The notes beneath the pieces are model-generated. The model made no database searches. It saw nothing but the letters and a program-made list of their open reading frames with translations, and had not been told where the DNA came from. Below, piece after piece: positions 16,433 through 32,098 of a DNA stretch of 64,000 nt (position 1 is the stretch's first letter; the number at the start of each line of letters is the position of its first letter). The stretch covers positions 672,001 through 736,000 of the forward strand of contig CAWCRS010000003.1 of assembly GCA_963798085.1 (NCBI GenBank). Reading direction: 5' to 3'. Both the position numbers and the translations under genes were made by a program. The DNA is from an uncultured Gemmatimonadales bacterium. Its GTDB lineage: Bacteria; Gemmatimonadota; Gemmatimonadetes; Longimicrobiales; RSA9.

Positions 16433-16453
16433 TTCGCGCGATTGAGGTCAGTG

Positions 16454-16598
16454 GCAGATCGTTTCTTCTGTTCACGACGCGCCGGAGGCGACAGCAAGGG
16501 CGGCGCAAGCATGTCCGCGCCCTTCGTCGCGTGGCCCGATCAACAGCCTGCCGGGCCGGCGGCCGACAGACCGCCGAGCGTGAAATGGCGTGCTAAAT
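16454..16598 (-). mobile_element. degenerate attC site
   Basis: Shares TTCACGACGCGCCG..GGCGCA.GC.TGTCC with the site at 23705; TTCACG/CGTGAA arms; cores mutated (GCAGATC, GCTAAAT on + strand). Confidence 0.6.
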
Positions 16599-16605
16599 GC
16601 CGTGG

Positions 16606-17005
16606 TGGTTCGGCAGAGGCTGATCCTATTGCACATCGTTCGGGGGTGATGGTTTACAGTCGCCATGGTAACGTGAGCCTTCCCTTTGACGGGAGGCTCC
16701 ATGCTCTGGAGGACGCAGACCATCATGGACGAACGTGCTCGCTTTGCGATCGAGGCCTCGCACTCGACGCACCCGTTTGCGGAGACCTGCCGCGGTTTCG
16801 GGATCAGCCGGCCCACCGGCTACAAGTGGCTCCGAGCGCTATCGTGACGGGCAATTCGCCGGGCTCGCCGAATCGCTCGCACCGGCCCACAATGCCCTCA
16901 CGCGACGCCACAGCCCGTCGTGCAGCGTATGCTTGCGCTGCGCCAAATGGAGTGCGGTACCCGCAAGATCCAGCGCTTGCAGGGTGTTCGACACCGTGGC
17001 CTGCC
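16606..17005 (+). mobile_element. IS481-like element, 5' remnant
   Basis: Near-copy of 19151-19555 including left end and MDERARFAIEA.. N-terminus, decayed and truncated. Confidence 0.85.
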
Positions 17006-17056
17006 ACTGCTCAGGACAACGGCTGGGATCGGCCACTGTCTCGGGTCTACAGTGAT

Positions 17057-18139
17057 TCATGTCTTGGCCTTTTGCTGTCGCCGGACGGGCGGCCTGGAAG
17101 TGACCGCTCGGAATTCGTTGGCGTCGGCAAGTTTCTCGACCAAGTGCCTTATCCAGGCCTCCTTGTACCCGTACGCATCCGCGAAGGCGTCGTACACGCA
17201 GAATTGCTCGATTGTTTTTTCCTTCTGCTTGCTGTTCGTTGGCGGCCTGACGTTGTAATGCCTCCACGCTCGTGTGTGTGTATCCTGCGTGAAGACATAT
17301 GGCAACTCGGCGGCAACGCGCTTCACGACCTCGCTCGGTTTGAGTAGGTCGGCAAATGCGACGGGAACGCGGCGCTCCTTGATGAGCGCGGCCACCTTCG
17401 CGAGCTGGGCCATTTCCTCAGGCTTCGTGGGATCGTACGGGACGAACTCGATCGACAAGTCAGAGGCACTCTCACGATTGGCGAGCTTCGGTACCAAGAA
17501 CACACTCAACGTGTACTTGGGGCTTGCAAGAACCTCTGGCGGCAGGCCGGCTCGGTAGGTCCGGACAAACTCGAGGAGATCGCGGGCGGCGGATTTCTCG
17601 AGGCTTCTTACCGCCGCGGCTTGGGATTCCGGACGTAGGGCTGAGAATTGAAGGGATACTGCTAGGGAAGCCGTGAGCGCGTGGTTCGGGGTAAACTCGT
17701 GGACCAAAAGATCCTCGAAGTTCATCAGCAGGGCTTGGCATTCGCCGTAGAGCGCCGGATCAAGCTCCGGGTGATCGCGGTGCTCAATGCGGTTCCTGAT
17801 CTTGATGAAGAACTCGAAGTTGCTCCGCTCCGGCGGGTTCTTGTCGCCCCAGTACTGCCGGAGACACTCCCCGAGTTCCCAATGCTTTGGTTCGCCGTCG
17901 ACCCGTGTGTAACGGAGACCCTTACCGGAGCCACCTTGCACGTACCAAGGCTTGATCCCGCGTGCGTAGAAGATCGCGTGGAAAAGCGCCGTGGTGGCCA
18001 TCACCATCAGGACTGCATACGTGCGAGTACGAAAGCCGCCGCCTGGCCGGTTGTAGTTCTCAACAGCGCACAGAGCACTCGCGCGCGCCTTCTGGAGATG
18101 TTGACGTGCAAGCCGGGGAATGCGCTTTCTTGACATCAC
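17057..18139 (-). CDS. DUF3644 domain protein with HEPN-type RxxxxH motif
   Basis: KARASALCAVENYNRP..FRTRTY N-terminus; IRNRIEH; CQALLMNFE. Confidence 0.75.
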   Translation of the reverse strand: MMSRKRIPRLARQHLQKARASALCAVENYNRPGGGFRTRTYAVLMVMATTALFHAIFYARGIKPWYVQGGSGKGLRYTRVDGEPKHWELGECLRQYWGDKNPPERSNFEFFIKIRNRIEHRDHPELDPALYGECQALLMNFEDLLVHEFTPNHALTASLAVSLQFSALRPESQAAAVRSLEKSAARDLLEFVRTYRAGLPPEVLASPKYTLSVFLVPKLANRESASDLSIEFVPYDPTKPEEMAQLAKVAALIKERRVPVAFADLLKPSEVVKRVAAELPYVFTQDTHTRAWRHYNVRPPTNSKQKEKTIEQFCVYDAFADAYGYKEAWIRHLVEKLADANEFRAVTSRPPVRRQQKAKT

Positions 18140-18193
18140 GCTTCTATCCTACACCGGATCTGTTTGCTGACTGTAACTGTTGCCCGCTTGCGC

Positions 18194-18300
18194 CTTTTAT
18201 GGATTGTGTGCTGTCAAGCCCTACGGTTCCGAGCGACACAACCCCCCCTCGGACGGGACAGCCCACATGCTGGCTGAGGCCGTGGCCTCGCCGGTCCTTG
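18194..18300 (-). mobile_element. orphan right end of an IS110-family element
   Basis: About 50 bp similar to 26109-26155 (GTGTCGCT..GGGCTTGACAGCA.ACA.TCCATA.AAG on minus strand). Confidence 0.7.
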
Positions 18301-18304
18301 CGGC

Positions 18305-18943
18305 TTACGGCTCAGAATGCCGACCCGTGGCCAAGTCGATTGATTCAACGATCAGAAGAGCGCGATTGACGATTCGGCGATATCCTTCGTCGAGCATTGC
18401 CAGTACGCTCGCGTGGCTCTCTGCGCTGATCGCAGAATCGAAGGTCTTCTCAAACAGCAGCATCAATAGATCGACCTCCGAGTTGTAGAAGTCAAGCTGA
18501 TCCCTAAGCCAATGCAGCATCTGTTGCAGCTCCAAAGAGAGGATGACGAACCCGACTGTTTGGCTTCCCAAGAATGGAGCCGTGTAGCGAACCAAGTGGA
18601 GAGGCCTGCTCGGACGGCCTTGGGCGTGGCTCAGGGCGTTGAGATCTGGCGCTGACATGCCTGCGAGTCGGCGCATCCCGAGAATGCCGTCAACATCGTC
18701 CTCCGGACCCGCCGTCACCCTAGCGATTCCTGCTCGAATTCGCTCAAGCAGTCGATCGTCCAAGAGGGCGCGGCGGTAAGCGACGGTCAGAGCCAGAATG
18801 GCAAAAGTATCGCGAAGCTGTCCAAGCTCTGCGAACAACGCCGTCTTGAGCTTCTTGCGTTGACGGGGACGATCAATGACCTCGGCAAGGGGGCCAGAGA
18901 ACAGGCCCAATGCCCAGCCTAAGATCAAAGTCAGGACGGGCAT
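18305..18943 (-). CDS. hypothetical cassette protein with N-terminal TM helix
   Basis: 212 aa ORF downstream of attC R' at 19013; hydrophobic N-terminus then helical domain. Confidence 0.65.
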   Translation of the reverse strand: MPVLTLILGWALGLFSGPLAEVIDRPRQRKKLKTALFAELGQLRDTFAILALTVAYRRALLDDRLLERIRAGIARVTAGPEDDVDGILGMRRLAGMSAPDLNALSHAQGRPSRPLHLVRYTAPFLGSQTVGFVILSLELQQMLHWLRDQLDFYNSEVDLLMLLFEKTFDSAISAESHASVLAMLDEGYRRIVNRALLIVESIDLATGRHSEP

Positions 18944-19006
18944 TGGGTCAGCATAGTCCCAGGTGTATGTCAGCCATCTTCACGAACAAGTCCCTCGCAC
19001 GATTCC

Positions 19007-19142
19007 AGATAACGTCTCAGAGTTTCATGTCGGGCCGGAGCCGCTTGCGGCACCAGCCCGTTCACGCCATTCAAGAGCTACCCGCCTCGGCCGTTGCGCG
19101 GCGGGGTCGCGCCAGCGATTCCGCATGAACCTGTTGTTAGGC
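19007..19142 (-). mobile_element. attC site
   Basis: Minus: GCCTAAC-AACAG-GTTCATG ... CATGAAAC-TCTGAGAC-GTTATCT. Confidence 0.8.
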
Positions 19143-19150
19143 GCCGTCCG

Positions 19151-20488
19151 GGGTTCGGTCGAGGCTGATCCTTTACACATCGTTCGGGGGCGATGGTTTA
19201 CAGTCGCCTTGGTAACGTGAGCCTTCCTTTTTTGACGGGAGGCTCCATGCCGTGAAGGACGCAAACCATCATGGACGAACGTGCTCGCTTTGCGATCGAG
19301 GCCTCGCATTCCACGCACCCGTTTGCGGAGACCTGCCGCCGGTTCGGGATCAGCCGGCCCAGCGGCTACAAATGGCTCCAACGCTATCGTGACGAGCAAT
19401 TCGCCGGGCTCGCCGATCGCTCGCACCGGCCGACGAGCTGCCCTCACGCCACGCCACAGCCCGTCGTGCAGCGCATCCTTGCGCTGCGGGACCAGATGGA
19501 GTGCGGTGCCCGCAAGATCCAGCGCTTGCTGCGCGACAAGTTCGACACCGTGCCTTGCATCGATACCATTCACGACATCCTCTGCCGGCACCAGCGCGTC
19601 ACGCCGCGCAGGCCTTCCCGCCGACGTACCCATCCCGGGCCACCATTCACGTCCATGGCCCATGCCAACAATGTCTGGACCGCCGACTTCAAGGGTGAAT
19701 TCAAGACGGGCGATGGCCGCTCCTGCTTCCCGCTCACGATCCAGGACGGCTACTCCCGCTTCCTGCTCGAGTGTCGTGCCTTCACCCGCCTCGATCTCAA
19801 AGCACGGCACGGCGATTCGATCACCTCTTCCACACCTGTGGACTGCCGAATCGCATCCGTACCGACAATGGCCATCCCTTCGCATCCCGTGCCCTTGCAC
19901 GCCTCTCCCAGCTCTCCGTTGACTGGATCAAGCTGGGCATTCTCCCCGAGACCATCGAACCCGGCAAACCCTATCAGAACGGCCGGCATGAACGCATGCA
20001 TCGCACGCTTGGCGAGCGCACCGCCACCCCACCCGCTCCAACGCTTCGTGCGCAGCAGCGCCGCTTCAACGAATTCCGCACCTTCCACAATACCGTGCGT
20101 CCACATGAAAGCCTGGGCCAGGAGACCCCCGCTTCCTTCTATACGCCGTCCGCGCGTCGGCTCGCACGCACCCCTTCACCGCTGGTCTATCCCCGGCACT
20201 TCGAACAACGCCTGGTCAGTCAGCTCGGCTCCATCCGCTGGAAGAAGCGCTTCATCCATGTGAGCCGCCTGCTCGCGCACGAATACGTCGCGCTCGAACC
20301 GATCGCCGTCTCCGTCTGGTCCGTCTATTTCGGTCCCATTCACCTGGGTTGGCTTGACGAAACAACGATTTCCGTATCATGGACGCACGACGACTGCAGC
20401 AACGACAACGCTGACCATCAACCCCCGAACGTTCTGTAAACGATCACCCCCACTGCTCAGTTGCAAAGGATCGGCCACGCCTACTGCA
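19151..20488 (+). mobile_element. IS481-family insertion sequence, transposase about 19247-20440 (frameshifted)
   Basis: HTH (CRRFGISRPSGYKWL), WTADFKG, IRTDNG, QNGRHERMH DDE motifs; repeated terminal boxes GGCTGATCCTTTACA / TGCAAAGGATCGGCC, GATGGTTTACA / TGTAAACGATC. Confidence 0.9.
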
Positions 20489-20489
20489 A

Positions 20490-21477
20490 CTACGACTTCC
20501 GGCGGCCGGCAATCACAGCGGTGAGGGCTAGGATGACGACGCCCACGAGAATCGCGAGAAATGCGATTGTGTTGCCAGTCAGTTTGCCTTGAGCGAAAGA
20601 CACGCCGCCATACATTATCGGGCCTGCAGCAATGATGATACCGATCATCATCAGCACTTTGCGCTCAAACAACAGCTCGACCTTCTCAAGAACGCTCTGA
20701 CGGCCTGCCTCGATTTTCTCAGAAAGCACCTTGGTCTCGTGCTCGATCGTCTTCGCAAGGCTCTGTGTGCGTTCTTGGAACTCGTCCTTCATTATTCGCA
20801 CGTCAGATACAACCTCGAATTTACCATGCAAGTTGGTCAGTTCCGTACCAATGTGATCGAACGGGTAGCCCGCCTCGCGTAGTTGCTTCTTTGGATCGAG
20901 CTGCCCGAAGCTCGAGGCAACCAGCTTACGCTTCGGAATGTCCGCAGGTATGCGGCGGCCGGAGCGGACAACGCCCTCCGAATCTTGGTATCGGTGGCTC
21001 GGGTGGGAACCATAAGGGAAATCAGGTCGCTCTTCGCCCTCAAGGACGAGGATGGTCAATTTGAAGATCGGTTCCCCATACTGAATGATGAGATCCTTGA
21101 CAGAACCGTTTCGAAGGCCCCAATTCAGCGAACCCCGGAACCCGGCATCGATCTTCGTCGCAACTTGCGAGATTCCCTCTCGCATTATCGTGGTTGTGGG
21201 CGTAATGAAGCCCATCAACATGCGGTTGGGCAGCACCTTGTGAACTGCTTCGGCCGTGAAGTCAATAGCCTCTAGGCTAGAAATGACCACGCTTTCGCCG
21301 GGCAGACCTTGAGGAACATACCCTCCTCGAGTTCGGCCTCCTCCCCCGTTGAGTGAAAGAGGACCTCTTTCCCGAGTCGAAGTTCGATGCCATTGGGGTT
21401 GAGAAGCTCCTCGCTCGCGTTCTGGAGAACGGAACCAAGAAGTCTCTTTACATTCGGTCAGCGAGCAGCTTGGCCAT
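20490..21477 (-). CDS. Dcd/dUTPase-fold domain + coiled coil + two C-terminal TM helices (two apparent frameshifts in first 60 codons)
   Basis: Reconstructed MAKLLADR.VKRLLGSVLQNASEELLNPNGIELRLG..PGESVVISSLE..KIDAGFRG..YQDSEG; two hydrophobic helices at C-terminus. Confidence 0.75.
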
Positions 21478-21530
21478 AACACGCCTCGTCGGTCCTTAGA
21501 GTCTATAATGTAATGCGCGAAGACCATGGC

Positions 21531-21676
21531 GGCCAACGTCCCGCGGTTTACGACGCCGCGAGAGCCCGGCGACAGCCGGGCGAAGCGCTGTCCGACGCCT
21601 CCCCGTGCTACCCCTTTCCCGTGCCTGCGGCGGCCAGCGGCTGCAGGCCGCGCAGCGTAAACCCAGCGTGTTATGC
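21531..21676 (-). mobile_element. attC site
   Basis: Minus: GCATAAC-ACGCT-GGGTTTACG ... CGTAAACCGC-GGGAC-GTTGGCC. Confidence 0.85.
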
Positions 21677-21752
21677 GCCGTTCGATCCGCCATGTTGCGG
21701 GCGGCCCGGCTCTAGCAGCACAAGTCCACCGGCACAACGGAGCTCTGGGGCC

Positions 21753-22892
21753 TTAGAGTATTTTCGCCCGGTATGGAAACCTCACGCTGAACGTTGTCAT
21801 ATACATTCCGCGGTACCCCGCATCAGGCTCCTCATGTTGTTCCACGGTTATCTCTGTTCCCAGGTGTTCCTTCGCAACCAGTTGGCTCAGATACAGACCA
21901 TATCCTGCGCCTTCCTCGACGGCCTGAAGCGCAGCCTCACCACGGAAGAATGGTCTGAAGACCTTACGGATTTCGTCCTTCAGAATCTTCGGCCCGAGCG
22001 AGGAGACCTCCAGTACGATCCCGTCACGTTCATCTTGGACGAAAATCTCAATTGTAGAGCCAACTGGGGCGTACTTCACGGCATTGTCGATAAGGGTGTG
22101 CGGGATTACGGACGACGCCTGCGGGTTTGCGACGACGTTGGCATAGCTCGATCCAGCTACAGTCACCCTGAGGTTCTTGGCGTCGAACCACGACTGATAG
22201 ATACGGACATACTTGATCACAGCGCCATGCAGGCGGAACGCAACGCACTCCGATGCGATGGTGAGCCATTCCGGGCGTAGCAGAAATTTCGCCACATTGA
22301 GCTTTTCTCCAAGGAACCGAGCTGCTTCATAGATCGCGCGTTCGGCCCGCGATGCACGGCCTAGTTTATCCTCGAACGTCCCGCCAGGGTGCAGTTCCTC
22401 GATGATCACATTGATGTTCTGACTGATCTGCGCATTGATCTGCTTGTAGTCATGTACGAACGCAAGGCCACGTTGTATGTCTTCCTTCAGGGACTTGAGA
22501 TAGTCAACCCGAAATTGGTCCACGTCGAGAATGTCTTCCCGTTCTTCGGTAAACCTAATCTCCCTTTCTTCTTTTCGGCGACTGAGAAGGGCGCGGTAGT
22601 AGTCAAGTGCCGCCTGGAATTCCTTGTTCGGAACAGGGACCACTTGACGCCGGCGACTTTTGCGTGCCGGTGTCGCGTAAAGCCAATCCTCAAGGACCAC
22701 GCCCGCGACCAGCAATTTGCTATCGACTCGTTGGTAGTTGAAGCCGTACTTGCAAAGCTGCGCGCCCTCCTTACTCTCGTGCTCACAAGGCCGATCCATG
22801 CAACGGAGGCATCGCGACGGCCACGGGCGGAGGCTGCCATCGCCGTAATGGCCATTGTAGAGGTGCGGGAATGGGAAGAAAAGGGTATCCAT
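21753..22892 (-). CDS. soluble sensor histidine kinase with Cys-rich N-terminus
   Basis: FVHDYKQIN H-box, LIDNAVKY N-box, GAGYGLY G2 box; CLRC..PC..LC N-terminus; no TM. Confidence 0.85.
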   Translation of the reverse strand: MDTLFFPFPHLYNGHYGDGSLRPWPSRCLRCMDRPCEHESKEGAQLCKYGFNYQRVDSKLLVAGVVLEDWLYATPARKSRRRQVVPVPNKEFQAALDYYRALLSRRKEEREIRFTEEREDILDVDQFRVDYLKSLKEDIQRGLAFVHDYKQINAQISQNINVIIEELHPGGTFEDKLGRASRAERAIYEAARFLGEKLNVAKFLLRPEWLTIASECVAFRLHGAVIKYVRIYQSWFDAKNLRVTVAGSSYANVVANPQASSVIPHTLIDNAVKYAPVGSTIEIFVQDERDGIVLEVSSLGPKILKDEIRKVFRPFFRGEAALQAVEEGAGYGLYLSQLVAKEHLGTEITVEQHEEPDAGYRGMYMTTFSVRFPYRAKIL

Positions 22893-23540
22893 CAGTGCAC
22901 CAATAGCTGCAGGACCGCTATGCCAGCCTGCGCGACTTGCAGTATGAGGCCAACTGTCTGCCGTTCCTCTCGGGCGTCACGAAGATAGCTGGCCAGTGAG
23001 TCTGTGTCGCGAAGTAGAATGGCTCTTTTGGCCACCTCCTGGAGCTGCCTTGGCTCGATGTCGGCGGAATGGGATAGCGAACCGATCCGGTCTAGGTAGA
23101 AGGCAAGCGAAAACCGTCGTTGTAGCAAGTCATCAATGGTTCGTTTGAATTCAACGTAATCCGCGCGCTTATCAAGTGTCGCGTCCGCAAGATCGAAGAA
23201 TTCCTTGTATTTCAGGGGCCAATCAGCGTTTGAATACGCGACGATGACTTGGGCCGGCGCGACCTTCTTCAAATGCCGAAGGACCCCGAGGCCTGCGTCT
23301 TTGGAGATGGCTGTACCCACGCCGTGGATGTCAAGCAGGATAACATTCGAAGTAGCCAGCCTCGAGTTTCGGCAAGTCAGTGACGTCTTGCCATTGTTCG
23401 ATGGTATAGCCATCGCGTTGGAATAGCTGGAGATAGAAGAACTCCGCGTCGTCGAGGACGAGCAAGCGAGCTCGCTTCGCAATTTCCTCGCTCGAAACAT
23501 GAGGCCAAGGCTTGGGACGGCGCTTGAATGGCCAACGCAT
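22892..23540 (-). CDS. receiver-domain response regulator without recognisable DNA-binding output (frameshift near 23346)
   Basis: RLLVLDD..VILLDIHGVG..IVAYS..LDK; TGATG coupling to kinase. Confidence 0.8.
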
Positions 23541-23704
23541 GGTTCCCGAACTCGTTCAAGGGGGACGCCAACTAGCCCGGTCTTGGGATGTTTAGACTCT
23601 CCAAGCGCAGTGTCAAGGACGACAAGTCGAGGCGGCCGTCGTTACGGGTCTATGCACGCCGGTGTTTTCACGTCGAGACACGATGCCGGTTGGCATCGCA
23701 TTGC

Positions 23705-23845
23705 GCATAACGTTCATTGATTCACGACGCGCCGAGAGCCGAGCGAAGCCCGGCGCAGGCGTGTCCAACGCCTTTCCCAATCTACACCTATCCCAGCCCG
23801 GGTTGGCACAGCCGAAGGCTGCGCCGGGTGAATCTGGTGTTAGCG
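23705..23845 (-). mobile_element. attC site
   Basis: Minus: CGCTAAC-ACCA-GATTCAC ... GTGAATC-AATGAAC-GTTATGC. Confidence 0.85.
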
Positions 23846-23942
23846 GCCGTGCGTCCGTGCCTGAATACACGTGGTTCTGTGGCGAAGCGGGCATCACCAC
23901 GCACCCGCCTTGGCGGGCCGACCGGTTGTCTCCTCTCAGCAG

Positions 23943-24957
23943 CTAATTGCAGGGCCATACACCCCCGCGTAGCACAACGCCTGCTTCCCGAAGGTAGCTG
24001 TTGCGGCTCGTGGACCATCGCCGGTCAATGCCACTCCTGTCGAGCAATTCGCCGTGCAGGTTCGATACGAATCGGTCAAGCAGGATCGTCAGATACATTA
24101 GGAGGTGAGCAACCGCGCGTGGCGCGGTTGCGAGGGCGCCCGCCGAGACAGGAACGGCCGATTCGAATCTATCGATTACGTCGTTAATCTCTAGAACCCT
24201 GTCAGTGTCCAGCGTACCAGATTCGCCCAAGCCGCCCAGACCGCCTGACCGCATCATAGCCGAACCCCGGACGATAGTTTATGGCATTGCGTATGGCGCT
24301 CGGCCATTCGCGACCGAGGATGTCGCCTGACCGCTTGATTGCGCGAAATGCGCGTTCCTCACCGGCTGAGCCGGTTCCGCTTGGGTACTTCTGAAGCCAC
24401 TCAGTACAGATATCAAACCACGCCCTCCAGACGTTGTCGTGGAGCCTGCCGTGCGCCTTTCGCAAGGAGATCTCTCTCGCGGTAGCGCCGACGCTCGTCC
24501 CGCAGTTGACCCGGTAGGTACCTGACCCGGCCTTCCGCCCAGCGGCTCCGGCTGCCGCCAGGACTCGGCTAACGTCCGCGTCTACGAACCACGCAGTCCT
24601 ACCGATAAGACGCGTCGCGGCGAGCACCAAGAAGAAGGCCCAATAGTACCAAGTGATCACAAGCCACGCCGGACTCCAAGTACCACCGCTACTCTGCGCG
24701 CGCCAAAGGAACACTTGGTGCTCAGCTGCGTGGTCAAGCAGGTACTCCGCATTCCCGATGAGAGCCGAGCCGAACTCCATCGCTGGCACAACGAGCGTGT
24801 ACCCTTTGCTCGATGATGCGCTAACGGTAAAGTATCCCGCTTGCGTCCACGAGCCAAGCGTGTTGGGTCGCCCGAACGTGTGCGAAACGCCGATCGGGAT
24901 TGCATCCAGCGCGAGCGACCTTGCCTCTTGCCAGACGTTGCCCTTGGGGAAGCTCAA
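23943..24957 (-). CDS. hypothetical protein, HEPN-like (frameshift near 24225), partner of DGQHR protein
   Basis: WLVITWYYWAFF helix, GRLH, IRNAINY (RNxxxY); TTGA overlap with upstream gene. Confidence 0.6.
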
Positions 24958-25972
24958 AGCATTGCCTCGGAGATCGGAGTCCCTTTGCGGAGAGCGGCGT
25001 GAAACAGTGCAACTATTCCGCGCTTGGTGAGGGTGGCGCGTCCGGTGATTCCAGAACTGAGGTCAAGGCGTGCAAGTGGTCGGACTACCATTTGTATATC
25101 GGCCTGCTTGGCACTGCCGCGTTGATTTATCGCGGTCCGGACAACTTCATCGAGCACTTCAAACATGGCCTCAAAGAACGCCGCCTTTGTGAGATTGCGC
25201 TTATCGATGAGTTCGGCGTCGAAAGCATTGAGATAGTTCAAGATGAGTTTGAACCGCATGTCAGGGTCAACATCCAAAAGAACACCACTGTCAAGGATCT
25301 GCGACAACGCGCGATTGAACGTAACGCGCGAGATCTTTCCGCTGAGCGATCTCGCTGCACTCAGGCGGCCCGCAAGGGGGGATCGGGGATGCTTCTGGAG
25401 CTTGTCGAAGTACTCCCGGAGGATCTGTTCCTTCGCGCTTTCGATTTCTGCGACTTGCTTGATATCGAGAAGCAAGGCGGCCGGTACTCCACGCTGAGTC
25501 GTGTTAATATCGATGAAGAGTTTTGCCTCCTCAGTGCGCGAGAGACCGTCGTATATGGCTACTGGAACGCGATGACGAACCGAGCACTTTTGATAACCCC
25601 AGAGCCTGTGCTGACCATTGATTACGAGAAAGGCTCCCTGCACTCTTGCAAAGGATAAGGACTTGGTCCGGCGGGCGTACGAGAACTCGGCCACATTTGG
25701 GCGGATAGGACGATGTTGCTCGGAATCGATCCAGAACCCGCTGCCAGGTAGGCGGCGATGTCATTTGCGCGCGTCTCGTTCAACGCTCTCTGAAATCCAG
25801 TTGCGGGATCGTCATCACGACGGGAAACGAAGCAACTTGGAAAAAGATCATCCACGGGGATCGTGGCAAAATAAAAGCGGTGGCGATTCTGTGTCATGAG
25901 CAGCGCTGGATACGAGATCGGCCTTCGCACACGCCGGCTCGCTGCTTTGGCAGTAGGTTTCTTGGATGACAT
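24954..25972 (-). CDS. DGQHR/DndB-like (ParB-fold) protein (frameshift near 25695)
   Basis: GFQRALNETRANDIAAYL, IPSNIVL, INGQHRLWG, EEAKLFIDINTTQRGV. Confidence 0.88.
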
Positions 25973-26108
25973 GGCAACGTGCCTTATCCTTGGGAATTAC
26001 TGATGGTGACGCCCCGGTCTCAGGACGGCTGTCACAGCACCTGGCAATCGGAGCGCCGTAATCTGAGGCCACCTGGGCACTAATGCAAGCTACAAGGACC
26101 AATGGCCG

Positions 26109-27547
26109 CTTCTATGGACTGTCTGCTGTCAAGCCCCACGCTTCAAGCGACACGATTCCGTTCAGTGCTGTTCACACTGTTCCAGCGAACGGCTCGACGT
26201 CGGCGGCTTCGTGAGTTTGTGCGGCAGGCTGCGCCGTCACGCCCTTCTATCCGTGCCGGCCGCAAGGGAGCCGGTCACCCTCTACTGCATGCGCGCGATC
26301 CACTCGTGCGCCCTGGAAGCCGCTGTCGGGATGGGCTCCATTTAACGTACGGTTTCCTCATGGGAGAACCACCCGCCATAACGAGCTCCACCTCTCGACG
26401 TCGTCTGTCAAACAGCGGTGCTTGCTTCCGATCAGGCCGTACGCAGCTTCGCGCCTTCCGGTACCACGCCCGCATCCGCATAGCGCCAGAGCGCAATCAG
26501 CAGCTTGCGCGCCAGTGCCACAATGCCGATCCGCCGCATGCGTTTCCCGCCATGACCGAAGCGCGCTTCGTACCAGCGGCTCAGCTGACTTCGCGGCTGG
26601 AAGCGCAGCCAGCACCAGGCAATCTCGATCGCCATCGCCCGGACCTGCCGGTTCCCCGCCTTGGTGATCCCCAGCTCGTGGTCCATCTCGCCGCTCTTGT
26701 GCGGCGTACCCACCAGTCCCGCCAGCGCTCCCACCTGACGTCGATTGCGGAACTGTCGCCAACTGAAGAATTCCATGCTGAAGGTCCAGGCACTGTTCAA
26801 GCCGATCGCTTTCAATGATCCCAGGCGACGCACCATTGTGTACGCGGGCTCACTCGACGTGCGGAGCAGTCGCCGCCGCTCCGCTTCCACTCGCCGGATC
26901 TGCTGCTTCACCAGCAACACTCGCTCCCACTCCCGCTCCAGCCGTGCCCGCAGGGCCGCAGGGAGCTTCGTCCGGTTCCAGAGCCGCGCACGGCTCAAGC
27001 GTGCGAGAAAGTCCGTGACCAGCTCGAGCCGCAACCCCTGACTGGCCAGCAGTCCCTTTCGGTTCGTCAGCCGCGTCTGCTCGTGCTTCAGCGTTTCCAG
27101 CTCCCGGTGCAGCTGCCGCCGGTCTTCCTCTTCCACACTCGGAACCTGCACCACGCTCCAGGTGCGCACCTCTCCGCCACAGTACTCCACCAGCATGCGC
27201 AGCAGCTTCGTCAGATCCACACGGTCCGTCTTCACTCGCCGCCGCCCTGTCCGCACCTCGAAGCTCGTCGCATCCACCACCAGACTTCTCACTCCGTTCG
27301 CCTCCATAAACCGGTGCAGCCAGAATCCCTCACGTCCCGCTTCGTAGCAGCACACCACCTTCGCATCGCTCTTCAGACTGAAGCGCCGCTTCGCACGTGC
27401 CACTTCCTCCAGAAGCGCTTCTCTGTCCCGTGCCTCGATCACTCGCTCGCGTACCGGTTGCGCCGGCGCCGTCTTGAACCCCAGATTCCACTTCGACTGG
27501 CCGATCTCGATCGCCATGTAGCTGCTGGCCGGCTTGGAACCACGCAC
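26109..27547 (-). mobile_element. IS110-family element: recombinase 26432-27547 plus 3' non-coding end; left end apparently deleted
   Basis: AIEIG, CYEAG, KTDRVD RuvC-like residues; HKSG..GITKAGN Tnp domain; right end TTGACA..CCATAGAAG. Confidence 0.9.
26170..26430 (-). ncRNA. candidate bridge/seek RNA in IS110 3' non-coding end
   Basis: About 320 bp non-coding end with hairpins; contains ATAGAAG (26244-26250) identical to the element terminus (26109-26115); boundaries approximate. Confidence 0.55.
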
Positions 27548-27551
27548 CCGC

Positions 27552-28466
27552 TCATTCGCTCACTTGGAAGTAATCGGAGTCGAGCCGCTTGAGCTCGTAC
27601 GCTTGAACGCGGGCAACGCCAATGTCATGATCGATCATGAGCCCTGCCAGCGCCTGACCATCGACTAGTACAATCTTGCTGTCGATGTTGGCCGCGTACT
27701 GCGTGGCATCTGCCGTGAACGATGAACTGGTGATAAAAATCCCCTTTCGAGCGCGAACACCCTGCAGTGCGCCCGCGAACTTCTGGATTTCAGGTCGACC
27801 TACCGTCCCTTCCCAGCGCTTTGCCTGAACGTAAATAGTGTCCAGACCGAGGCGATCCTCCTTGATGATTCCGTCGATGCCGCCGTCGCCGCCACGGCCG
27901 ACCGCCCGACCCGCGTCAGCTCTTGACCCGCCATAACCCATGGCAACGAGAAGCTCGACGACGAGGTTCTCAAAGAACGACGGCGGACAGATTCGAACTC
28001 GCTCGAGGAGGTCGGTCACAAGCTTGGTTCGAATCTGCTCGTAACCGTATTCGATGTGTTCCTCCGGAGTGAGGTCGTCAATTGGTGGCTTCGGGCGCGT
28101 AGGCTTGGCCGGCCCATCGCCGCGTCCTGCGCGGTAGCCAACGTATTCCGGGAACTGCTCAAGGGTCTTCATGCTGATGCGGCCAGGCGTACTGGCGAGA
28201 ACCTCACGGCCTCGCGCAGTGATCCGATAAACCGCTCGACGAGGTGATTCGATCAGGCCAGCCGCTTTGAGATGCGATTTTGCCCACGCGACCTTGTTGA
28301 CGAAGATGGTCTGCTTGCCACTGGGCAGGAGTTGAGCGCGCTCATCTGATGTCAGGGCGAATTGCTGGGCCAGCGCCTCGAGTGTTTCATCGTTGGGATG
28401 TTCCCGACCGTCCGCCATGTGCTCCAGCAGCGGCCGCATCAGCGTTTGAAAGTCAGGAATCGGCAT
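27552..28466 (-). CDS. mrr: Mrr type IV restriction endonuclease
   Basis: MPIPDFQTLMRPLL Mrr_N; FFENLVVELL..GDGGIDG..YVQAKRW..ITSSSF. Confidence 0.95.
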   Translation of the reverse strand: MPIPDFQTLMRPLLEHMADGREHPNDETLEALAQQFALTSDERAQLLPSGKQTIFVNKVAWAKSHLKAAGLIESPRRAVYRITARGREVLASTPGRISMKTLEQFPEYVGYRAGRGDGPAKPTRPKPPIDDLTPEEHIEYGYEQIRTKLVTDLLERVRICPPSFFENLVVELLVAMGYGGSRADAGRAVGRGGDGGIDGIIKEDRLGLDTIYVQAKRWEGTVGRPEIQKFAGALQGVRARKGIFITSSSFTADATQYAANIDSKIVLVDGQALAGLMIDHDIGVARVQAYELKRLDSDYFQVSE

Positions 28467-28490
28467 TGTGATCAGGGGTTGAGCTTGTGC

Positions 28491-28608
28491 GCGTAACGAT
28501 ACAGCCTCGGGCGTGCGCGGGCCAGTTGCGCCTACACCAAAACTCTGAACGTCGTCAACCGGAGAACACACCGCCGATCGTGCCCGCCCTCGCCCAACAG
28601 CATTGAAC
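28491..28608 (-). mobile_element. degenerate attC-like (or attI-side) site at head of array
   Basis: GTTACGC core 25 bp upstream of mrr ATG; GGGCG..GCGGGC / GCCCGC..CGCCC arms; R'' degenerate. Confidence 0.4.
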
Positions 28609-28994
28609 CCTGTCTCACGTAGCTCGTCGCCAACATGCCACCGAACCGCCCATGCCTTCAACTTCTCAGTAACGCACACGCACAATGGATATTGACCGCC
28701 CTGGCCCGCCCAATTCCCTTCCCCGGCCCGTTCCGCCGTTGCCCGGCAGTAACCCTCCCATCACCCCCGGCCGGCTCGGCGGACAAGACGGCACGACCTG
28801 CCGCGGACCCGCACCGGCGCGCCCGCCGAAACGGCGAAGTCAATCCTCGGCACGACTCTGCCCACTGGAACGCGCTCGCCCGCTCACAATGGCTCGGACC
28901 GCGCTTCGTCGTCTGAAACCGTGACAGCCCGCATTTGCGAATACCGCACTGACCGCCTCCAAGCCGAGTCCGCCGCGCGCAATGAGCAGAACGC

Positions 28995-31926: not shown

Positions 31927-31963
31927 GAAGAAAACCTCCCCGGGCGAGCGTGCCCGCGGGAGG
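31927..31963 (-). terminator. riboswitch-controlled intrinsic terminator
   Basis: CCTCCCGCGGGC-loop-GCCCGGGGAGG followed by TTTTCTTC; overlaps aptamer 3' end. Confidence 0.75.
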
Positions 31964-32013
31964 AGTCATCAGCGGCCTGCAGCGGCCACGGTTCAGGCGA
32001 ACTCCATCGCCAT
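31959..32013 (-). ncRNA. fluoride (crcB) riboswitch
   Basis: GGCGATGGAGTTCGCC-TGAACCG..GCTGATGACTCCT consensus directly upstream of crcB. Confidence 0.95.
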
Positions 32014-32098
32014 TTCCTTGTGTCAGGATAGCCGCGCAGCGGCGCGCCGACAAGTGGGTCGGTGCGACGCGTCGTGGCGCCAGCGAGGTGGCGGCGCT

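Follow-up and report, generated by a model that had tools for sequence, protein, structure and literature searches.

The insertion sequences (ISs) of the IS110 family and its IS1111 group are known to be guided by RNA (PMC11208160, PMC11187229). In IS621, as described by Durrant et al. 2024 (PMC11208160), a two-loop RNA reads both strands around a shared core dinucleotide, with one loop for the target and the other for the donor circle junction. The elements described as IS1111-attC (ISKpn4, ISPst6, ISPa25 and ISPa21) combine a DEDD-type recombinase and a guide RNA encoded on the 3' side with an attC target, and the seekRNAs of ISKpn4 and ISPst6 are reported to match that target (Siddiquee et al. 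2024, PMC11187229). Here we analyze a stretch of 64,000 nucleotides (nt) of the assembly GCA_963798085.1 (contig CAWCRS010000003.1, positions 672,001-736,000; 12 contigs in the genome), hereafter the window. It carries, between 26109 and 27562 on the minus strand, what we consider likely to be a decayed IS1111-type RNA-guided IS of the IS110 family, from a lineage that homes to the R' end of attC.

The general principle is already known, and what is new is the lineage and the position within attC. The IS1111-attC elements are described as inserting near the 5' end of attC in antisense orientation (PMC3001079), whereas the window element lies at the R' (3') end in sense orientation. The group IIC-attC introns are likewise RNA-guided mobile elements that home to the attC sites of cassette arrays, but they are retroelements with a reverse transcriptase, found near the 5' end of attC and in antisense (PMC3001079). 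A limited search of the literature on IS1111-attC elements and bridge RNAs, which is no proof of absence, returned no case of sense-oriented homing to the R' end. Adaptive genes are brought together and rearranged by integrons, a traffic that attC-homing elements can block, reshape or exploit for their own transport. RNA-guided homing of this kind has been demonstrated in a single IS1111 lineage; the window element adds a distant one, which would read attC at its other end, next to where the integrase cuts, and which is oriented like the cassettes. The integron integrase cuts between the G and the TT of R'.

Recombinase, element ends and the cassette junction

The features on which the argument rests are as follows.

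26109..27562, minus strand: IS-derived segment, an IS1111-type element truncated at its 5' side (left limit approximate, 27559-27565)
26432..27547, minus strand: recombinase (transposase) open reading frame (ORF), with possible starts at GTG 27547 or ATG 27517
26109..26133, minus strand: right end of the element, CTTGACAGCAGACAGTCCATAGAAG, with a -35-like TTGACA, the inverted-repeat arm CCATAG, a terminal AAG and the shared AG at 26110-26109
26096..26108, minus strand: first bases of the downstream cassette, which with AG 26110-26109 read AGCGGCCATTGGT
23693..23858, minus strand: attC of the cassette that starts at the right end of the IS (E = 1e-18 in the window, 1e-16 in the genome)
23848-23839, minus strand: R'' of that attC, GGCCGCTAAC (plus strand 23839-23848, GTTAGCGGCC)
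23711-23709, minus strand: R' GTT of that attC
16442-16606, 18998-19149, 21517-21696 and 23693-23858, minus strand: the attC sites of the window, found with nhmmer
18194..18239, minus strand: solo right-end relic TTGACAGCACACAATCCATAAAAG, followed by AGGCGCAAGC, with 85% identity to the window copy's right end
Contig C2: second copy of the element, 97% identical across window positions 27435 down to 26110, with homology stopping at the right end

The recombinase is recognized by the NCBIfam model NF033542 (IS110 family RNA-guided transposase; 161 bits at a cut-off of 140, residues 11-358) and by Pfam PF02371 (E = 7.7e-14); PF01548, listed for close relatives, was not reported for it at E <= 0.001. 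Its closer relatives in a protein search (P0002-P0004) are 72-79% identical, 380-384 amino acids (aa) long and begin with MRKAATRRV. The wider set of relatives comprises 103 loci, 23 from genomes and 80 from metagenomes, whose protein identity is 32-64% (47-61% where the match is full-length). Searching 73 genomes from the same family at the DNA level gave weak partial matches only, none of which entered the analysis. E4, E59, D98, D101, S275 and G276 are invariant in 15 aligned members of the clade and, with every other residue invariant across them, are retained in the window recombinase; judging by position, the acidic residues would be the DEDD tetrad and the SG pair the C-terminal SG motif. 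A quick protein tree, in which at least nine rows are long-branched from mis-picked ORFs, does not firmly place the window protein, to which the loci L065, L069 and L082 are nearest by path.

This recombinase could in principle belong to an ordinary member of the described IS1111-attC subgroup (ISPa21, ISPst6, ISKpn4, ISPa25), with nothing distinctive about it. The logic is certainly shared, in the form of a 3' non-coding RNA, short subterminal inverted repeats, an attC target and a junction promoter like that of ISEc11 (as described in PMC11187229). Nevertheless, we regard this as improbable: among 72,556 plasmids searched with tblastn the best match reaches 48% identity, IS4321 and IS5075 of the classical IS1111 clade align at only 30% over 76 residues (E ~1e-2), and the end of attC and the orientation differ from those published, as noted above. 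A sequence search of the PDB with the recombinase matched no solved chain. The consensus of the relatives, GLTPTPxQSG, fits the IS1111 motif GL-P----S(T)G and the window protein, with GLVGTPHKSG, departs from it; the full-length relatives, at 380-384 aa, lie above the 330-350 aa of the group. The predicted way of working is thus of the IS1111 type, yet full-length kinship to the classical IS1111 clade does not emerge from these comparisons. A separate origin of attC homing from that in ISPst6 and ISKpn4 is likely.

The limits of the element were learnt from relatives with several copies within one genome (L028-L030 and L040-L042). The left end of the relatives is (T)AGATNCTATG, located ~110-140 nt 5' of the conserved LALELS start region, and their right end is TTGACA-N12-CATAG(A/G)AG, with the same architecture as in the window copy. 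Between the stop codon (26432) and the right end (26109) the window copy has 323 nt of non-coding sequence; in the relatives the 3' side has 290-780 nt and the 5' side 110-140 nt, which is the arrangement of the IS1111 group. Their subterminal inverted repeat, CTATG(NN)G / C(NN)CATAG, spans ~5-8 bp, with extensions of (T)AGATN on the left and AAG on the right, as opposed to the repeats of 11-13 bp and the extensions of 7 (or 6) bp on the left and 3 bp on the right that are described for the IS1111 group (PMC11187229); the asymmetry of the extensions is common to both. An AG stands at the tip of either end (GA-AG ... AG-AT), which fits a shared core dinucleotide. The right end further contains a -35 box and the left end TAGAT, such that their joining in a circle would form a promoter. 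This parallels ISEc11, for which a circle-junction promoter (-35 from the right end, -10 from the left end), an essential 3' non-coding region and the lack of a target duplication are described, but whose target is linear and not attC and whose recombinase belongs to another lineage (PMC11187229). The right end occurs in three copies genome-wide, and the left-end motif AGATNCTATG was not found above chance in either the window or the genome.

The target of these elements became apparent through a repeat of ~150 bp to the left of the C2 copy, which was reached via the predicted target and from which we built an nhmmer profile. The profile identifies 64 copies in the genome, four of them in the window. 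Most are co-oriented and 1-3 kb apart on C2:361863-444196, with others at the ends of contigs C1, C3 and C12. They start with ..(C/A)TAAC and end with (G/C/A)ACGTTA(G/T), and as a family they display an R'' of the form YTAAC, an R' of the form GTTRRRY, a co-oriented array, and cassette starts complementary to the R'' of their own attC. The last property is quantifiable: the 13 nt after GTT are complementary to the R'' side of the attC that follows at 9.6 positions on average in 43 consecutive pairs of the C2 array, as against 5.5 in 1849 non-consecutive pairs, 1.3% of which reach 10. R' begins with GTTAG in 29 of the 62 aligned copies. A full integron integrase gene lies at C1:447485-448429 (TIGR02249, 410 bits), 28 kb from the nearest attC, and the 64-kb window contains no integron integrase gene. 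As seen across the assembly, a large chromosomal array of ~60 attC sites is spread over four contig ends (C2:361863-444196, C12:1734-7318, C1:476289-482494 and C3:1095701-1100688); by the C12 sites there are integrase-like matches in two pieces (C12:7972-8781; 120 and 101 bits) on the cassette strand. A candidate attC at 23690-23855 had been doubted for its folding score (z = -0.97). That doubt was dropped, as genuine attC sites fold no better and the profile identifies the site.

Against this background the right end of the window copy can be read directly. It is followed, on the minus strand at 26108-26099, by CGGCCATTGG, and the flank AG-CGGCCATTGGT is complementary in 10 of 13 positions to the R'' side of the attC at 23693-23858, a score that no other R'' side among the 61 compared attains. 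By the cassette rule, then, the element is joined on its right to what are the genuine initial bases of this cassette. The flanks of all three right ends also resemble known R' extensions (8/10 in the window, 9/10 in C2 and 9/10 in the relic), a likeness of at least 8 being reached by 8%, and of at least 9 by 1.1%, of random genomic 10-mers starting with AG. Two proposals of the first-pass annotation, made from the letters of the window alone, are borne out here: the sites that it noticed near 19007 and 23705 are genuine members of the attC family by the nhmmer profile, and the junction of the right end with the cassette's own start goes beyond chance.

The predicted 3' RNA and its guide segments

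The non-coding region downstream of the recombinase gene can be folded into two modules, whose parts are given below.

26329..26392, minus strand: target-binding module, with a lower stem of 26392-26383 paired to 26338-26329, from consensus folds
26382-26371, minus strand: right-target-guide strand GUUAUGGCGGGU, in the internal loop of the target module
26370-26351, minus strand: upper hairpin of the target module, from the consensus fold
26350-26338, minus strand: left-target-guide strand GUACGUU-AA-AUGG, in the internal loop of the target module
26234..26297, minus strand: donor-binding module, with the closing stem CGCGC/GCGUG
26290-26280, minus strand: right-donor-guide strand AUGCAGUAGAG, in the donor module
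26279-26253, minus strand: hairpin of the donor module, whose pairs covary
26252-26243, minus strand: left-donor guide GGAUAGAAGG, in the donor module

RNAalifold predicts 19 pairs from 15 sequences, 13 of which show compensatory changes, and 13 pairs from 47 sequences, with such changes in 12. The hairpin of the second module is flanked by the invariant ACGGAUAG(A/G)AGG on one side and CAG-N-AU on the other. These alignments support the interpretation of the region as a two-loop bridge/seek RNA, with a predicted gene at ~26392-26234. A search with the RNA alignment over the genome (nhmmer) recovered the two known copies only, along with a weak match at C7:627077 (E = 0.007).

More telling is the behavior of the loop strands across relatives. 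A motif pair that anchors the RNA could be located in 59 of the 103 relative loci, which allowed each putative guide segment to be set against the DNA that it should recognize. For the right-target guide, 30 of the 47 unique pairs of RNA and flank contain an exact match of at least 7 nt to the reverse complement of the right flank; when the RNAs were re-paired with foreign flanks (2000 permutations), the mean was 0.9 pairs and the maximum 6. The left-target guide, namely the strand immediately 5' of AGAUGG, is identical to the DNA that precedes the left end over a mean of 3.17 nt, compared with 0.84 upon permutation (n = 35; maximum 1.6 in 5000 permutations), and 15 of the 35 elements reach at least 4 nt. 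On the donor side, AUAG(A/G)A, the left-donor guide, matches the right end in each of the 52 elements compared, and the variable base of the right-donor motif CAG-N'-AU follows that of the left end AGAT-N-CTAT: it is complementary for G in 10/10, for A in 6/8, for T in 2/2 and for C in the majority. By these sequence comparisons all four guide segments track their own flanks or ends across relatives of 47-61% identity. In L037 and L038 the RNA modules are separated from the stop codon by ~220 extra bases, which include a long palindrome; a single guide base (A/G) distinguishes these two loci, and it is paralleled by T/C in their right flanks.

The segment complementary to the top strand here lies 5' of that complementary to the bottom strand, the same order as is given for IS1111-type seekRNAs, including those of the IS1111-attC elements (PMC11187229). 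IS621 differs in that its RNA lies in the left end and its guide order is reversed, according to the description in PMC11208160. In the window element itself the left-target and left-donor guides fit and the right-target guide fits in part; there is no left end with which to compare the right-donor guide. The core dinucleotide of the window lineage is AG, as opposed to the CT of IS621. The left-target guide GUACGUU with AG, as in the C2 copy (AA in the window), equals the R' context of attC, (N)ACGTTAG. A relative of 60% identity, L082, is inserted precisely at GTT|AG of an attC-like hairpin, which reads GGCTAAC ... CTACTGCAGG ... CCTGCAGTAG ... GTT.

Several suggestions of the first-pass annotation can be assessed from these data. 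The sequence features that it named are all present, that is, the right end at 26133-26109, ATAGAAG at 26250-26244, ACGTTA at 26348-26343 and CGTTAT at 26383-26378. ATAGAAG, which it likened to a donor guide, lies in the left-donor guide, agreeing with the right end at the A/G position in the relatives; ACGTTA, proposed as part of a target guide, belongs to the left-target guide, whose sequence changes along with the left flank across the relatives. It is therefore not invariant whatever the target, an outcome that would have counted against the proposal. The same role does not hold for CGTTAT, which sits at the 5' start of the right-target strand and whose CGU is conserved in the relatives. 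As for the overall idea of an IS110-type element that an RNA directs to the cassette junction, it gains support from the attC context, from L082 and from the alignment of flanks across homologs, the check that had been put forward for it.

Several observations weigh against an attC-homing, RNA-guided element, and they bear on two other accounts of the locus. The first concerns the RNA. The single-sequence fold of the window RNA is no better than that of shuffled sequences (z = -1.07), Rfam at the gathering threshold gave no bridge-RNA family in the window, and a promoter scan of 26050-27700 found no promoter-like site; Rfam at E <= 10 on the non-coding region returned WT1-AS_2 alone (E = 3.8), which we take as chance. 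Given the unremarkable single fold and the lack of an Rfam match, the structural case rests on covariation. The conserved 3' region might then be protein-binding DNA, in the form of subterminal sites, or a 3' untranslated region (UTR), with the guide matches as by-products. However, the stems remain paired even where both of their strands have changed, and the variable loop strands covary with the differing flanks of the hosts, which is not to be expected of protein-binding sites inside the element. RNAs from the corresponding position are moreover described as co-purifying in experiments on IS1111 members (PMC11187229). We therefore hold this account to be very improbable.

The remaining observations concern the target. 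The left junction of the window copy has been deleted, so GTT^AG is not directly visible in the window; the insertion at GTT^AG that had been proposed thus stands on its right side, by the AG and the cassette start, and not on its GTT side, which went with the left end and the attC. Nor is the C2 insertion clean: its left end, from which the first ~22 nt are missing, comes after an intact R' (GTTAGCTGAAAC) and another 18 bases. The window RNA has A at core position 26342, where C2, two metagenome contigs and the aligned relatives have G, and its right-target strand GUUAUGGCGGGU has G in place of the C that, in the relatives, is paired to the core G. Among the sequencing runs listed, three of metagenomes contain small shares of the stretch and none of RNA contains it; the short contigs of related copies obtained from the former served for base 26342 only. 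On the flanks actually present, the right-target guide scores 7/10 in the window, 5/10 in the relic and, depending on register, 6/10 or 3/10 in C2; across the relatives, 17 of the 47 RNA/flank pairs fall under 7 nt, and L026, L027, L034 and L036 fit poorly by eye.

It could thus be argued that a short word, ACGTT-AG, is recognized anywhere, with the position at cassette boundaries being a by-product of its presence in a 64-copy repeat. Besides the poor fit of the flanks to the right-target guide, this is favored by the shortness of the left-target guide (5-7 nt), by the lack of enrichment of the full predicted target in the genome (42 matches with at most 3 mismatches, 29 in the reversed control) and by L034 and L027, which have similar guides and lie outside recognizable attC hairpins. 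On the other side, all three right ends in the genome abut sequence resembling R' extensions, the one in the window being joined to its cognate cassette start; the right-target strand pairs with the R'-extension type ATCTGCCATA at 10/10 positions, counting two G-T pairs; and L082 occupies an attC-like site. On this evidence recognition of the word alone is distinctly improbable, and we favor homing to the R' end of attC. An unoccupied attC at C12:5747-5926 (GTACGTT-AT-CTGCCATA) matches the left guide at 7/7 positions and the right guide at 10, by 8 Watson-Crick and 2 G-T pairs, and fits both target guides better than any occupied site. The R' region of the attC at 21517-21696 in the window reads GACGTTGGCCGCCATGG, in which the 7 nt CCGCCAT are fully complementary to the right-target strand; this site, too, is empty.

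Decay of the copies and a proposed mechanism

The left side of the window copy is bounded by a restriction gene.

27552..28685, minus strand: Mrr-type restriction endonuclease gene (Pfam Mrr_N, Mrr_cat), directly upstream of the recombinase ORF

Its stop codon (27554-27552) abuts the IS-derived coding sequence, 4 nt from GTG 27547. N-terminal homology to P0002/P0003 is recognizable from about codon -13 (fading from -13 to -15), and a TGA stands at codon -14. As the frame ends at about codon -13/-14, the breakpoint lies near 27559-27565, inside the last Mrr codons. Compared with the relatives, a deletion appears to have removed the attC, ~90 nt of the left end, the native start and ~8 N-terminal residues. 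The window copy, being without a left end, is unable to move as a unit, and it is a relic and not an intact element, which also separates it from the published IS1111-attC elements.

The other two copies are no better preserved. That on C2 keeps the native start and a hairpin in the 5' UTR, but lacks the segment for approximately the first 30 residues. Its left side had been considered as a clean GTT|AG junction, a candidate that was dropped because the attC consensus shows AGCTGAAAC to belong to attC. Its right end reads CCATAGAAAGCCG, with one A more than the window copy, and the RNA core is AG in C2 as against AA in the window; these two oddities may be linked. The solo relic spans 45 nt between two cassette genes, and its flank AGGCGCAAGC is an R'-extension type that occurs twice in the main array. 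It is a second, older hit at a cassette boundary, whose attC and remaining IS are gone. No copy among the three in the genome can move as a unit. The IS relic of the window may, however, still supply protein and RNA in trans. Another IS110-family recombinase gene (C2:145-1299, 150 bits) is unrelated to the copies studied here.

By analogy with IS621 and ISEc11, we propose the following mechanism. The element would excise as a circle in which the right end ...CCATAGA-AG joins the left end AG-ATNCTATG..., thereby bringing TTGACA and TAGAT together as a promoter. The RNA transcribed from the 3' non-coding region would carry two internal loops and, as we infer from the described systems, be bound by the recombinase. 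Its donor loop would hold the circle junction, in which GGAUAGAAGG would pair to the right end on its bottom strand and CAG-N-AU to the left end on its top strand. Its target loop would hold the R' region of an attC: GUACGUU and AG would base-pair to ...ACGTT-AG on the bottom strand, and the loop strand 5' of the upper hairpin would do so on the top strand just past it. The DEDD-type recombinase would then swap strands at the shared AG, and the element would land after GTT, two bases from the integrase crossover, oriented like the cassettes. The window element would have landed in this manner at the R' of the attC behind the Mrr gene, and a later deletion would have taken away this attC together with the left end and the first codons. 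What remains would be an intact-looking recombinase ORF, the right end and an RNA gene in which A has replaced the core G.

A more far-reaching interpretation would see in this clade an independent invention of attC homing. In it, the sense insertion two bases 3' of the crossover, together with a left end AGAT that rebuilds a consensus R' (GTT|AGAT = GTTRRRY), would keep the attC recombinogenic, so that the IS and the downstream gene form a cassette mobile by the integrase; the loss of attC and left end in all three copies would then result from the integrase and the IS acting on each other in a way that purges or immobilizes the invader. We offer this tentatively and regard it as rather unlikely as a whole. 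Of more immediate use, the ~50 relatives constitute a natural reprogramming series, in which each of the four guide segments can be compared with the DNA that it should recognize, and from which the guide rules of IS1111-type bridge recombinases might be worked out.

The surrounding cassette cluster

The region of the window from 16442 to 28685 contains the four co-oriented attC sites, no integrase and cassettes with defense-type genes, so that in terms of annotation 16.4-28.7 kb can now be described as an integrase-less cassette cluster. Besides the Mrr-type gene, its cassettes include the following.

25972-25622 and 25694-24954: DndB-like gene, apparently split over two overlapping ORFs
22892-21753: HATPase_c protein
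18139-17057: DUF3644 protein

The G+C content at third codon positions (GC3) is ~0.6-0.7 in the cluster, below the ~0.8 of the flanking genes. Two copies of the 5' part of an IS481-like transposase (HTH_32, LZ_Tnp_IS481) are present at 16607-16980 and 19152-19529, 93-97% identical to each other, of which the former borders the attC at 16442-16606 on its 5' side, where it has probably disrupted the R''. Outside the cluster, a fluoride riboswitch (RF01734, 44.7 bits) is found at 31953-32020 on the minus strand, upstream of a DUF190 gene at 31919-31107.

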